NCBI GenBank assembly: GCA_964589445.1
Contig: CAZPQX010000001.1
Coordinates: 110,098-174,097, forward strand
DNA length: 64,000 nucleotides
DNA from: an uncultured Candidatus Saccharibacteria bacterium
Lineage (GTDB): Bacteria > Patescibacteriota > Minisyncoccia > Phycocordibacterales > WO2-35-19
Reading direction: 5' to 3'
This document shows positions 6,560 to 63,094 of the stretch, piece after piece (the stretch's first letter is position 1; each line of letters begins with the position of its first letter). A program made the translations under genes and the position numbers. Under the pieces are notes generated by a model. The model made no database searches. It was not told where the DNA came from and saw only the letters and a list, made by a program, of their open reading frames with translations.

Positions 6560-6659
6560 TACCCCACAAGGTTAGCATAAATACCAATTTTTGGCAAGTG
6601 CCAAGGCAAAAGCCCCATTTTGGCTGATTTTGGGCTCTTTTGACTGTTGAGTTATCCAC

Positions 6660-6688
6660 TTGACATATCTACCTGTTTGGTATATAAT
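6660..6688 (+). promoter_or_regulatory. Perfect sigma70 consensus promoter TTGACA-17 nt-TATAAT
   Basis: ttgaca(6660-6665) tatctacctgtttggta tataat(6683-6688), then AAAGGAG RBS and ATG at 6706. Confidence 0.5.
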
Positions 6689-6705
6689 ATATAAAGGAGT
6701 TCCCA

Positions 6706-7038
6706 ATGACAATCAATATGAACGGCCTCGCTGAGGCCAAGATGAAGTGGTTTTCGGTCAGGATCTTCCTGATCACACTGATCATGTCCCTTGGTTGGAC
6801 GGGAGCTATGGTAGCTTCCCGCACGAGGGGGACCTACCAGGAGGTAAGTCACGAAGTTGGAATGATCATGGCGATGTTAACTTTAATGATCGTACTTCTG
6901 GCGATCCTCTGCCTCTGTGAGGGCAATTGGCAACCCGACCCCAGACCATGGAGCGACCGGACTTATGTGTCTGGGCGAGCATGGGTCTCCATGGCCCTTG
7001 CCCTCCCAATCACCAATATTTTCCTCCTACTACAGTAG
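6706..7038 (+). CDS. Hypothetical small membrane protein; first gene of the high-GC islet
   Basis: ORF with strong promoter and RBS; 2-3 predicted TM helices; GC content far above flanking host genes. Confidence 0.45.
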   Translation: MTINMNGLAEAKMKWFSVRIFLITLIMSLGWTGAMVASRTRGTYQEVSHEVGMIMAMLTLMIVLLAILCLCEGNWQPDPRPWSDRTYVSGRAWVSMALALPITNIFLLLQ

Positions 7039-7112: not shown

Positions 7113-8069
7113 ATGGATAAAAAACTTTTAAATACAGATGCAAACGAGCTCCCCTCTCACCCACTCGGGCAACTCGCACGACAATTCCTCGAATACATAG
7201 AGATAGAAAAAGGCCGCAGCCTGAAGACAGTAGATAATTACAAAAGGTACCTCTCAGTATTCCTACAACACACCAAAGTAGAAGATGCGGGAGATATCAC
7301 AGATTCCCTTGTAAGAGAGTTCCGCCTTTGGCTAAACAGGAAAGTGAGCGGCAACAATACGAAGACTGGCGACACTCTCTCACGCAAAACTCAAAACTAT
7401 TATCTGATAGCTTTGCGCGCCTTCCTCAAATATTTAGCTCGTCAAGAAGTGAAGACGCTGCCCGCAGAGAGGATCGAGCTCGCCAAGACTCCTGAGAGGT
7501 CACTCGACCTCATCACCCAAGACGAGCTAGAGCGCCTGATGGAAGCTCCTAAAGGAGAAGATTTGAAATCAATAAGAGACAGGTCTATCCTCGAGCTCCT
7601 CTTTTCAACTGGCCTCCGCGTCTCCGAGCTTTGCTCGCTGAGGCGCGATATCAACCTCAAGGCAGACGAGCTTTCGATACGAGGTAAGGGTGGCAAAGTG
7701 CGTGTCGTCTTCCTTTCTGAAAAGGCCAAAACTTGCGTCAAAGAATATTTGGCAAAAAGGAAAGATATGGACGACGCGCTTTTTGTAAAAGTAGATACTG
7801 AAAAAAGAGCGACCAAGATAGACCCACTCACCCCGCGCTCAGTAGAGAGGATCATCAAGCACTACGCGATAAAGTCCGGCATTTCCAAAAAAGTGACCCC
7901 TCACGTGATAAGGCACTGCTTTGCTACCGACCTCCTTAGCAACGGTGCTGACCTCCGCTCTGTACAAGCACTCCTCGGCCACGCTCACATAGGCACCACA
8001 CAGGTTTATACCCACGTGACCGACAAGCACCTCAAAGAAATCCACAAAAAATTCCATAACAAACGATAG
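7113..8069 (+). CDS. Tyrosine site-specific recombinase (XerC/XerD/phage integrase family)
   Basis: C-terminal catalytic signature ...TGLRVSEL...HVIRHCFATDLLSNGADLRSVQALLGHAHIGTTQVYTHV (R, H-x-x-R, H, Y); N-terminal SAM-like core-binding domain. Confidence 0.85.
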   Translation: MDKKLLNTDANELPSHPLGQLARQFLEYIEIEKGRSLKTVDNYKRYLSVFLQHTKVEDAGDITDSLVREFRLWLNRKVSGNNTKTGDTLSRKTQNYYLIALRAFLKYLARQEVKTLPAERIELAKTPERSLDLITQDELERLMEAPKGEDLKSIRDRSILELLFSTGLRVSELCSLRRDINLKADELSIRGKGGKVRVVFLSEKAKTCVKEYLAKRKDMDDALFVKVDTEKRATKIDPLTPRSVERIIKHYAIKSGISKKVTPHVIRHCFATDLLSNGADLRSVQALLGHAHIGTTQVYTHVTDKHLKEIHKKFHNKR

Positions 8070-8139
8070 CTTGATTTTTATACTCTTTTGGTGTATAATA
8101 TAATTTAGATTGATCTAACAAAAGAAAGGATGGCCCATC

Positions 8140-8862
8140 ATGGGAAAATCAGGAGTAGAACCGGAGGGGAAACCCTCGGTAGAGGCGATGTGGAAGAACC
8201 AGTCCAACCGCCTCCAACTGGCAAGAAATCAGGCTATGGTCGCTCGCAAGCTGGGCGACTATGCCTCCGCCCACAGCGGAATGCTGTCGGCGTACATCAC
8301 CATCCTCGGGGGCAACCCCGTTGAAGGTCGGCACCCAGTGAAGTTTTTCTTGCTGGCGCTGTGGCATGCATTTTGCATGTCGTGGCGGTTGGAGAAGCTC
8401 AACCACAACCAGCTGGATGTATGGATTTCATTCATACTGAAGCTGCGCGCCAAGATGCCGGCGTTTAAAAGCGTGCTAAATAAGACGCTTATAGACGCGG
8501 CTGTCCGCGAAGTAAGGGGCGCAAACACCAACGGCAAGCATCACCAGCTAGGTCTTGCACTGCTCACCTATGCCGAGGTGTTGCTTGCAACAGTTTACTG
8601 GGGTGATGAAACCCCTACCATAGTTAAAAATAAGATCAGAGTGGCTCTTGATCTGGAGCCACTGATCCGAGAAGAGTCCGAACAACCCCAAGGCCTGCAG
8701 CAGCTTGTCCGGATTCTCCGGAAAGCGGGCGAGCTCTACATCGCCCTTGGAGAACCACTCCAAGGGAAAGCGTACCTCAACTATGCTCTCGTCCTCGCCC
8801 AAGGCGAGGCAGATGCCCCAGACCAAGTCCCCAAGATCAAGGCTATACTGGCCAAGATCTAA
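8140..8862 (+). CDS. Hypothetical protein (240 aa), high-GC islet cargo
   Basis: Long ORF with RBS (aaaggatggcccatcATG) and an intrinsic terminator downstream; its start region is conserved with the gene at 35683. Confidence 0.5.
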   Translation: MGKSGVEPEGKPSVEAMWKNQSNRLQLARNQAMVARKLGDYASAHSGMLSAYITILGGNPVEGRHPVKFFLLALWHAFCMSWRLEKLNHNQLDVWISFILKLRAKMPAFKSVLNKTLIDAAVREVRGANTNGKHHQLGLALLTYAEVLLATVYWGDETPTIVKNKIRVALDLEPLIREESEQPQGLQQLVRILRKAGELYIALGEPLQGKAYLNYALVLAQGEADAPDQVPKIKAILAKI

Positions 8863-31850: not shown

Positions 31851-31887
31851 GATTCCCAAATCGAACGTTGTGTAGTAAAAATATATG

Positions 31888-32050
31888 GCCCTATCGTCTA
31901 ACGGTTAGGACGGAGCCTTCGAGAGGTGAGGTTGGGATATGGGACCCAACCGCAAGACCTTTTGAGAATTTTTATGAGTAGAACGAAATAAAAAGCCCAA
32001 AAGGTGTACAGCGACTGTAAGTCGGAAAATTCGGGTTCGATACAATTAAA
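31888..32050 (+). pseudogene. tRNA-Glu-like unit 2: first 33 nt identical in register to the intact tRNA (through U33), then about 115 nt of unrelated GC-rich sequence and a T-arm remnant
   Basis: ggccctatcgtctaacggttaggacggagcctt | cgagaggtgaggttggg... ttcgggttcgatac; no 3' acceptor complement. Confidence 0.3.
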
Positions 32051-32054
32051 TAAT

Positions 32055-32126
32055 GGCCTCATCGTCTAACGGTTAGGACGGAGCCTTCTCAAGGCTTAAA
32101 TCGGGGTTCGATTCCCCGTGAGGTCA
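32055..32126 (+). tRNA. tRNA-Glu (anticodon CUC), 72 nt, CCA not encoded
   Basis: Cloverleaf by hand: acceptor ggcctca/tgaggtc (one G-U), D stem gtct/ggac, anticodon stem gagcc/ggctt with loop ttCTCaa, T arm cgggg-ttcgatt-ccccg. Confidence 0.75.
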
Positions 32127-32160
32127 CATTCAACAGCTAGCACGAGAAGCGTGCGAAATA

Positions 32161-61980: not shown

Positions 61981-62227
61981 AACATTTTATAAATATTTAA
62001 TGTATTTAAGTATAGACTAAACACAATAACACTCAACTCTGAATTAGCCTTATCTCTTCATCTTTTCTTCATGATTGCTTTTACCACCCAAATCCCCCAT
62101 TTGGCAATTTAAGACTATTTTGTTAATATGATTTTGTTCTTTAAAAGAGAATATTTTGTCTTAAAGTTTTTTACAAAACTTTAGTGACACATTCCGCGGT
62201 AGCTCAGCTGGTAGAGCGGCGAGCTGT

Positions 62228-62822
62228 GGATAGGTTTACACTCAAGGCTGGTATACTTATGTATATATGCCAGAGAAGAGAACCTATGCTGATCGTGCTG
62301 AATATTTGCGAGAAGCCGTCAAAAAAAGAAGGAAAAAACTTCGAGAAATGGCTCGCGAATATGGTGGAGGTAAGTGTGCAATATGTGGTTATAAAAAATC
62401 ACCAAGAGCACTAGCCTTTCATCATCTCAACCCACAAGAAAAAGATTTTGGACTTTCCGTTAAAGGATTGACCAGATCCTGGGAAAAGATGAGGAAAGAA
62501 ATAGATAAATGTATCTTGCTTTGCGCAAACTGCCACGCAGAAGTGCACGATGGTATTACGCAGCTTCCCGAGGTAACTCGGGTTGAAAAACGAGGTGAAT
62601 TCGGGGAAGCCCTTCGTGGGTAATCCCGAGCCAAGACCAGCACTAATTTTGGTTTTTAATTTTTATAAATCAAAATTAGTGCTGGTAAGGTGTAGAGACT
62701 ATCCGTAATTGGAGTACTTTTCGGACTAAAAGTCCGGATGGGAAGCGCCTCGCCACTTATATCTCACAGAGATTTTAAGTGGATGATATAGTCCATCCCT
62801 CTTAGAAATTTGAGGATAAATG
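62228..62822 (+). mobile_element. Group I intron (about 595 nt) within the tRNA anticodon loop
   Basis: Catalytic-core hallmarks near the 3' end: R-like tttcggactaaaagtccgg and S-like gatgatatagtcc (P7 pairing gacta/tagtc); intron ends with G before exon 2; encodes an HNH ORF. Confidence 0.6.
62267..62623 (+). CDS. HNH homing endonuclease encoded within the group I intron
   Basis: GGGKCAICGYKK...LAFHHLNPQEKDFG...LLCANCHAEVHDG (Cys pairs, HH and N...CANCH HNH motif). Confidence 0.75.
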   Translation: MPEKRTYADRAEYLREAVKKRRKKLREMAREYGGGKCAICGYKKSPRALAFHHLNPQEKDFGLSVKGLTRSWEKMRKEIDKCILLCANCHAEVHDGITQLPEVTRVEKRGEFGEALRG

Positions 62823-63002
62823 TAACTCGTTGGTCGTAGGTTCGAATCCTACCCGCGGAGCAACAAACACGAAGTCCTGATGCGTAGCATTAGGGCTTTT
62901 GTGTTTGTATCTGCCTGTAGGATTCGAACCGAAGGTGCCTGTTTTTAAGGAATAAGATGACTATAAAAACAGAGCATCTCGACCGGAAGAATGGAGGGAG
63001 AG

Positions 63003-63022
63003 GCGAATCCTACCCGCGGAGC
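63003..63022 (+). repeat. Direct repeat of the tRNA 3' end (T-loop half + acceptor + CCA), 160 bp downstream of the tRNA
   Basis: gaatcctacccgcggagcca vs tRNA 62843-62861 gaatcctacccgcggagca; an inverted partial copy (gtaggattcgaacc) lies at 62917-62930. Confidence 0.5.
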
Positions 63023-63094
63023 CATCAAAATGACCTTGTTCTGCAGGGTCATTTTGTTTGACCCAGATAGGGTTCAGAACCAATTTTTGTTATA

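Follow-up and report, generated by a model that had tools for sequence, protein, structure and literature searches.

The locus described here raises the question of whether a tRNA-Asn gene whose two halves lie 595 nucleotides (nt) apart still yields a tRNA, and of what an HNH nuclease gene is doing between the halves. The locus is found at positions 62193-62860 of a 64,000-nt stretch of contig CAZPQX010000001.1 from an uncultured Candidatus Saccharibacteria bacterium (the window, that is, the whole stretch that was analysed), and all of its features lie on the plus strand. We consider it highly probable that a tRNA-Asn(GUU) gene is split here by a group I intron of subgroup IA that carries an HNH gene, and that the account of splicing, homing and expression control given below holds as a whole. 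The observation is genuine, and its kind has already been published in 2025-2026, in a study of tRNA introns in Patescibacteria (Nakagawa, Amikura, Omae and Suzuki, mSystems 2026, PMC13011429; preprint 10.1101/2025.07.03.662931).

The split tRNA-Asn gene and its group I ribozyme

When the 35 nt at 62193-62227 were joined to the 38 nt at 62823-62860, ARAGORN recognized the 73-nt product as a canonical tRNA-Asn(gtt) cloverleaf. The unspliced DNA at 62193-62860 gave no tRNA call with default ARAGORN or with the Rfam tRNA model, and in its intron mode ARAGORN returned tRNA-Asn(gtt) i(36,595) from the raw DNA. The 5' exon corresponds to tRNA positions 1-35 (acceptor strand UCCGCGG, D arm, anticodon stem strand GCGAG and loop bases C32 U33 G34 U35), and the 3' exon to positions 36-73 (U36 A37 A38, stem strand CUCGU, variable loop, T arm, acceptor strand CCGCGGA and G73), giving a tRNA body with a U1-A72 pair, G73 and no encoded CCA. 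The intron therefore spans 62228-62822 (595 nt) between anticodon positions 35 and 36, with U62227 as the last base of the 5' exon and G62822 as its own final base, the terminal (omega) guanosine. The exon coordinates, the Asn identity and the G73 discriminator that a preliminary description of this DNA had proposed are all recovered in this way.

The same junction recurs in related loci. The nuclease family was found in at least 566 encoding stretches in a scan that took one genome per species, and the locus analysis of CPR (candidate phyla radiation) genomes used the best 80 of them; in 70 of these 80, ARAGORN showed the open reading frame (ORF) enclosed by an intron longer than 500 nt. The arrangement CUGU|intron...G|UAA was uniform in 74 of 74 sequences, a set that includes the window itself and three metagenome copies of it, always with one tRNA body, U at position -1 and a terminal G. 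A search of metagenome contigs for an uninterrupted anticodon loop together with the 3' half of the window's tRNA gave at least 120 intron-less stretches, of which 80 were kept as loci. Their genes have the loop CTGTTAA, an identical 3' half and a 5' half nearly identical to that of the window, so that they closely match the predicted spliced product, and the examples run through ARAGORN were called Asn. None of the 80 intron-less loci contained a homologue of the nuclease.

The intervening sequence matched the Rfam group I intron model RF00028 at 62535-62815 over the full length of the model (positions 1-253), with 64.5 bits against a gathering score of 50 bits and an E value of 4.7e-14. An alignment of 59 non-redundant relatives, running from the internal guide sequence (IGS) to the 3' splice site, was folded with RNAalifold, which returned P2, P3, P4, P5, P6, P6a, P7.1, P7.2, P8 and P9; P7 was added to this structure as a pseudoknot before the pairs were counted. 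Standard pairs occupied 95.8% of the cells, compared with 35-44% when the 3' partners were slid by 1-3 columns, and 36 of 50 pairs showed compensatory changes. The covariation score was 0.58, with slid controls reaching at most 0.10, and not one of 500 shuffles equalled the observed pairing values. Together with the terminal G present in all 74 junction sequences, these data support the earlier proposal that the intervening sequence is a group I intron.

The individual helices are as follows. P2 is the hairpin CCCGAG-GUAA-CUCGGG at 62567-62582, in which all four modelled pairs show compensatory changes and GNRA loops are found. The 5' strand of P3 (CGAGGUG, 62591-62597) pairs with CGCCUCG at 62746-62752, a helix supported by covariation with 98.8% of cells paired and compensatory changes in four of its seven pairs. 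P4 (62601-06/62624-29; 5/6 pairs compensatory) and P5 (62610-12/62618-20; 2/3) occupy 62601-62629 and are followed by P6 (62630-32/62689-91) with the long P6a hairpin (62636-59/62663-86) at 62630-62691. P7 is formed by GACUA at 62697-62701, within the R element GUGUAGAGACUA, and UAGUC at 62789-62793, within the S element GAUGAUAUAGUCC; it was located from the Rfam alignment and is invariant in 59 of 59 sequences. Between P7 and the 3' strand of P3 lie P7.1 (62702-05/62710-13; 3/4 pairs compensatory) and P7.2 (62720-26/62732-38; 4/4), which both covary and together cover 62702-62738. The core is completed by the P8 hairpin at 62753-62782 (3/4 modelled pairs compensatory) and by the P9 hairpin at 62798-62815, which has a GAAA loop. 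On the basis of the P7.1/P7.2 signature the intron is assigned to subgroup IA, in agreement with the published classification, and the copy in the window keeps every core position that is invariant in the family.

This fold corrects part of the preliminary description. The S element had been placed rightly, since the 3' strand of P7 lies within it. The sequence taken there for an R-like element, ggactaaaagtccgg (62723-62737), belongs to the variable P7.2 hairpin. The pairing of gacta with tagtc as P7 stands and so does its UAGUC strand, whereas the 5' strand had been set on the wrong copy of GACUA: the candidate at GGACUA (62724-62729) falls inside P7.2 and was rejected in favour of the invariant copy. 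A further candidate pairing, GGAUGG (62738-62743) with CCAUCC (62795-62800), was also discarded, as it shows no covariation in the relatives and its first strand is part of P7.2.

The guide sequence was found far from the 5' splice site. No guide could be found near that site, and the sole consistent one lies 332 nt inside the intron: it reads ACGCAGC(UU) at 62558-62566, within an IGS element at 62556-62566, and its GCAGC is invariant in 59 of 59 sequences. The P1 pairing whose presence had been left to be checked can be formed in the window between exon GAGCUGU (62221-62227) and GCAGCUU (62560-62566), involving seven exon bases and a U62227.G62560 wobble at the splice site, and G62228 pairs with C62559. 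UUA at 62556-62558 could form a weak P10 with the UAA of the 3' exon. The position of the guide means that the 330-nt stretch 62229-62558 is the loop of P1.

The HNH nuclease gene, its overlap with the ribozyme and its relatives

The P1 loop contains most of an ORF of 118 codons at 62267-62623 that starts 39 nt into the intron. In agreement with the HNH assignment made earlier, its product matched the Pfam HNH family PF01844 (24.7 bits, cut-off 21.4) and PHROG 2255, 'HNH endonuclease' (6e-31); NCBIfam holds no family for the 118-residue protein. Residues C37, C40, H52, H53, C86, N88, H90 and H94 were invariant in 34 relatives. An AlphaFold model (predicted local distance difference test score, pLDDT, 81.7) consists of a long N-terminal helix and an HNH core, with residues 104-118 predicted to be disordered. 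All of the best Foldseek matches in the PDB were HNH nucleases, although weak (E >= 0.18), and when the PDB was searched by sequence, the sole hit, a weak one with E 0.004, was the nuclease domain of a group II intron maturase.

The closest relative is encoded in a Candidatus Paceibacterota metagenome-assembled genome (MAG; locus L004), with 94% protein identity. The codon differences between the two ORFs comprise 18 synonymous and 7 non-synonymous ones, a ratio from which the nuclease gene appears to be under purifying selection. No difference at all was found at 62549-62640, the region in which the ORF and the ribozyme overlap. This overlap with the IGS begins at about codon 97 (...ITQLP...), and codons ~97-118 run through the IGS, P2, P3, P4 and P5 to the UAA stop codon at 62621-62623 in J5/4. 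The first base of the stop codon (62621, U or C) covaries with 62609, with which it forms a wobble pair at the foot of P5: 33 relatives have G.U here and 20 have A.C. Codon 62621-62623 is UAA in 36 relatives and CAA in 23, and in the latter the ORF extends through the 3' strand of P4 and P6 and ends in the tail GQSRAKP. The C-terminal tail is probably dispensable, because free-standing relatives of the nuclease (see below) stop near residues 102-108.

The start of the ORF is also structured. A hairpin at 62241-62275 carries TGGTATACT (62249-62257) in its 5' strand and the AUG (62267-62269) in its 3' strand. The corresponding motif, TGGTATAMT, resembles an extended -10 element 9 nt ahead of the AUG. 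Of 69 non-redundant loci, 80% or more have it immediately before the ORF, and in nearly all of them the start-codon hairpin was predicted as well. Because the motif stood upstream of only 1 of 80 phage relatives (see below), it is confined to the CPR copies. We infer from this arrangement that the hairpin could mask the start codon in the pre-tRNA, and that an internal transcription start at the motif could give a nearly leaderless nuclease mRNA.

The nuclease has many relatives. A protein database search returned 1,509 of them; most belong to Parcubacteria/Paceibacteria-type MAGs, and many reach 70-97% identity. The MAGs of the closest ones carry the names Paceibacterota, Nomurabacteria, Kaiserbacteria, Falkowbacteria and others, which points to a host of the window within the Patescibacteria, probably among the Paceibacteria. 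In 72 of the 80 CPR loci the gene lies inside the P1 loop of a 35/36 intron (two of the 72 meet a contig end), and in the remaining 8 it is free-standing beside tRNA-Asn, either upstream on the same strand (L036, L039, L072, L074, L080 and L082), divergent (L019) or convergent (L025). The HNH match falls at about 1501-1800 in most of these free-standing loci, at 1028-1333 in L019 and at 347-646 in L074. In seven of the eight, a 35/36 intron of 216-317 nt without an ORF could be seen in whole or in its first part, the sequence of L080 stopping before the intron site. The free-standing proteins end near residues 102-108 (...GITKIPKK) and do not enter the ribozyme. In L072 and L074 a degenerate 5' half of the tRNA was seen upstream of the free-standing ORF (at about 1375-1470 in L072), composed of TCCGCGG, a 44-nt hairpin insert and a D-arm-like stretch, with the intact 5' half downstream of the ORF; this suggests that the 5' exon may have been duplicated as the ORF changed position.

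Relatives of the nuclease were also encoded in 339 stretches of viral contigs, at 49-68% identity. Among the best 80 of these (L204-L283), 75 had the gene in a tRNA array, and tRNA-Asn was its immediate neighbour in 53, often overlapping it or separated by 1-60 nt; none of these 80 phage loci showed a group I intron. The family is thus tied to tRNA-Asn in every arrangement, which is the pattern expected of a site-specific homing nuclease.

A proposed splicing and homing model, its rivals and its precedents

The course of events proposed for this locus would start with transcription of the pre-tRNA through the intron. The ribozyme would then fold, with P1 formed by exon CUGU plus G and the guide ACGCAG, followed by P2, the P3-P8 core (including P7.1 and P7.2) and P9. 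Attack by an external guanosine after U62227 would be succeeded by docking of G62822 in P7 and by ligation of the exons, restoring the loop CUGUUAA. That this copy splices is inferred from its fold and splice-site features and from a published experiment in which a related tRNA-Asn intron spliced in vitro. The HNH nuclease, which is of the zinc-finger type, would for its part cut or nick an intron-less tRNA-Asn gene close to the anticodon; with the intron-bearing copy as repair template, the intron and the nuclease gene would then pass to the empty allele. Homing is the most likely role of the nuclease, as judged from its family, its location, the signs of purifying selection and the association with tRNA-Asn in both CPR genomes and phage arrays. 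Ribosomes that reach the last codons of the ORF would pass through the guide and P2-P5 and unfold the ribozyme, and a selfish nuclease whose reading frame crosses the ribozyme core requires that translation and splicing be kept apart; we propose that the start-codon hairpin with TGGTATACT may do so.

Several points weigh against this model. P1 has a loop of 330 nt, and because the exon part of P1 beyond CUGU is not conserved in the relatives, the guaranteed P1 amounts to just 5-6 bp; P10 has at most 3 bp (UAA/UUA) and is not conserved among them. P1 and P7 are invariant and hence provide no covariation evidence. The promoter scan passed over the motif inside the intron because it has no -35 element. 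According to PMC13011429, most tRNA introns are without nuclease genes and their horizontal transfer is limited. The mismatches in P9 of this copy and a possible second tRNA-Asn gene outside the 64-kb window also count against the model (see below).

The alternative that deserves most attention, although we consider it unlikely, is that the intron splices and the HNH protein is not a homing enzyme, being instead a decaying passenger, a maturase or a nuclease with another target. No cleavage experiment on any member of this HNH family was found in the literature, so that no member has a reported activity, and the absence of a named NCBIfam family, the weak matches to solved structures and the predicted disorder of the last 15 residues, which are dictated by the ribozyme sequence, would all be compatible with such a protein; Nakagawa et al. 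(PMC13011429) moreover rate horizontal transfer of tRNA introns as infrequent. Against this alternative stand the catalytic and zinc-binding residues, all invariant in the 34 relatives, and the excess of synonymous over non-synonymous changes (18 versus 7). The spread of the family over at least 566 species genomes and 339 viral stretches, and its link to tRNA-Asn in three arrangements and in phage arrays, form the pattern of a site-specific selfish nuclease. The family is also absent from 80 of 80 intron-less loci. A homing role for the nuclease is consequently preferred.

That the split gene is a pseudogene with a dead intron, an intact tRNA-Asn elsewhere in the genome doing the work, appears very improbable. 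ARAGORN found no second tRNA-Asn within the 64-kb window, which is all that was viewed, and an intact copy may lie elsewhere in the genome; P9 contains two U.U mismatches in this copy, and 161 nt downstream the 3' end of the tRNA is partly repeated. Against this, all family-invariant core positions are intact, the tRNA halves give a perfect cloverleaf, the nearly identical L004 differs mainly in variable helices and loops, and the repeat downstream is no more than a fragment; according to PMC13011429, complete genomes usually have the intron-containing gene as their sole tRNA-Asn. Hardly credible is a host tRNA-Thr(UGU) with an intron at 33/34, which derives from the fact that ARAGORN named the host of about half of the related loci Thr(tgt) i33, in numbers similar to Asn(gtt) i35/36 and with a few other names. 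These Thr(tgt) calls are evidently a two-base shift of the boundary: all loci share one U1-A72, G73 body that matches the intron-less tRNA-Asn genes, and the same shift is documented in PMC13011429 as a software artefact settled by sequencing of the spliced product. With the shifted boundary the window intron would end in A (...AAA|UGUAA) and not in G, so that only the Asn reading fits group I chemistry. The reading adopted here remains a functional tRNA-Asn(GUU) gene interrupted by an intron that is predicted to splice itself.

The closest precedent is the study cited at the outset, which covered 95 complete Patescibacteria genomes and reports 15 tRNA-Asn(GUU) genes interrupted at 35/36 by group I introns; four of these introns encode PF01844 HNH nucleases. 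In vitro self-splicing is described there for one tRNA-Asn and one tRNA-Asp intron, with the junction sequenced, and a terminal G-to-C mutation abolished exon ligation. Subgroup IA accounts for 25 of 28 introns at 35/36 in that study, IC for 81% of bacterial tRNA introns; mis-calling of Asn as Thr by ARAGORN and tFind is reported, and more nuclease-bearing copies are foreseen in draft genomes. The window intron resembles this class in its host tRNA, 35/36 site, phylum, subgroup IA, nuclease family and the failure or mis-calling of tRNA finders, and differs from it in that the published set consists of complete genomes, among which this one is not included. As it agrees with the class on every point that can be tested, its kind is already known. 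The view of the preliminary description that an HNH-bearing tRNA intron would be unusual in a CPR genome thus does not hold, given the four published cases (PMC13011429) and the nuclease family in at least 566 species-level genomes. A term search of the accessible text of PMC13011429 found no mention of the ORF location in the P1 loop, the overlap with the IGS and P2-P5, the start-codon hairpin or TGGTATAMT, the free-standing form, the phage link, or a number of nuclease-bearing copies in draft genomes as large as the one obtained here.

Other known systems share fewer features. The bacterial tRNA-fMet group I intron likewise occupies an anticodon-loop site and carries a homing nuclease that targets the host tRNA gene; unlike the window intron, it is inserted at 33/34 and encodes a PD-(D/E)XK instead of an HNH nuclease, the activity of which is experimental there and deduced from sequence here. 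Its subgroup may also differ from IA, given the 81% share of IC cited above (PMC13011429). Free-standing homing endonucleases have been described for T4 SegB (PMC2330249), for T4 mobE, which homes in trans (PMC2790892), and in 'collaborative homing' (PMC3984707). They are comparable to the HNH relatives that stand free beside tRNA-Asn in phage arrays and beside ORF-less introns in 7 of the 80 CPR loci, and they differ from the window gene, which lies inside the intron; SegB, in addition, is a GIY-YIG and not an HNH enzyme. ORFs overlapping core sequences and nuclease genes beside ORF-less introns both have precedent elsewhere (PMC3984707, PMC2790892). The ORF-less introns of tRNA-Leu(UAA) at 34/35 (cyanobacterial and plastid) and of Azoarcus tRNA-Ile belong to IC3 and measure ~200-250 nt, whereas the window intron has P7.1, P7.2 and a gene in its 330-nt P1 loop. 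The P4, P6, R and S core sequences of ORF-less bacterial tRNA introns resemble those of the window intron.

Because standard tRNA finders miss or mis-name such a gene, CPR genomes seem to be without tRNA-Asn and their completeness scores drop, an annotation problem already pointed out in print. A cell with a minimal genome appears to rely on a ribozyme for an essential tRNA. The present analysis adds that the nuclease-bearing form occurs in hundreds of species, as compared with four genomes, that the same nuclease family marks phage tRNA-Asn genes, and that free-standing and embedded forms coexist. Given this scale, the phage link and the coexisting forms, the origin of a mobile intron can be studied by direct comparison of natural sequences, and somewhat higher interest than in the intron itself lies in the comparative picture of the nuclease family and in an unexplained tRNA-associated module (see below). 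More tentatively, and short of calling it probable, we propose that this HNH lineage is a homing nuclease dedicated to tRNA-Asn and common to phage arrays and CPR genomes, that the CPR loci preserve stages from the free-standing to the intron-borne form, that the hairpin may gate expression, and that the module might be an undescribed small RNA or mobile element.

Flanking signals and a tRNA-derived module

A promoter-like site (TTGGCA-17-TAATAT, preceded by TG) at 62101-62129 is a candidate for transcription of the pre-tRNA. It derives from a consensus scan that gave three sites against 2.4 expected, which lends it weak support. Directly 3' of the tRNA, a terminator-like hairpin followed by a T run occupies 62871-62899.

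A structured element of about 120 nt (62906-63025) was observed directly past the tRNA and this terminator-like hairpin, with a second flanking hairpin at 63026-63056. It starts with GUAGGAUUCGAA, which resembles the 5' strand of a T arm and at the same time repeats the tRNA 3' end in inverted orientation; it contains a long hairpin and terminates in an exact copy of the last 19 nt of tRNA-Asn plus CCA. A folding energy of -41.4 kcal/mol (z -4.1) was calculated for the element. Copies of the tRNA-Asn 3' end were found 90-230 nt downstream of the gene in 18 of 66 nuclease-intron loci and in 8 of 71 intron-less loci. Its occurrence beside intron-less tRNA-Asn genes refutes the idea that the module is specific to intron-bearing loci, and the 3'-end copy is accordingly not tied to the intron.

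Seven copies of one sub-family of the module were aligned, and 19 of 34 pairs showed compensatory changes. A covariance model built from them (R1) found further copies, including one in the window at 31954-32025 (35.4 bits, E ~1e-7). The latter copy is preceded by a partial duplicate of the tRNA-Glu 5' half (31887-31920) and followed by a T-arm-like stretch and an intact tRNA-Glu(CTC) gene at 32055-32127. The tmRNA and tRNA modes of ARAGORN and a search of Rfam at E values up to 10 gave nothing convincing for the module, and its identification as a tmRNA, signal recognition particle (SRP) RNA, YrlA or T-box was considered and dropped. The module may be a relic of elements that integrate into tRNA genes, may derive from tandem tRNA copies that have decayed, or may be a mobile element or a small structured RNA in its own right.

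Two observations were made beside intron-less tRNA-Asn genes. In L087 (minus strand, at about 7930-8370) and L136, a frameshifted GIY-YIG gene (PF01541, E 4e-9) sits between tRNA-Asn and a second, directly repeated copy of its 3' end, found 381 nt downstream. L109, a contig without the intron, bears two intact tRNA-Asn genes in tandem at 6589-6859, separated by 229 nt, an arrangement that could possibly represent the ancestral state from which the downstream 3'-end copies arose.

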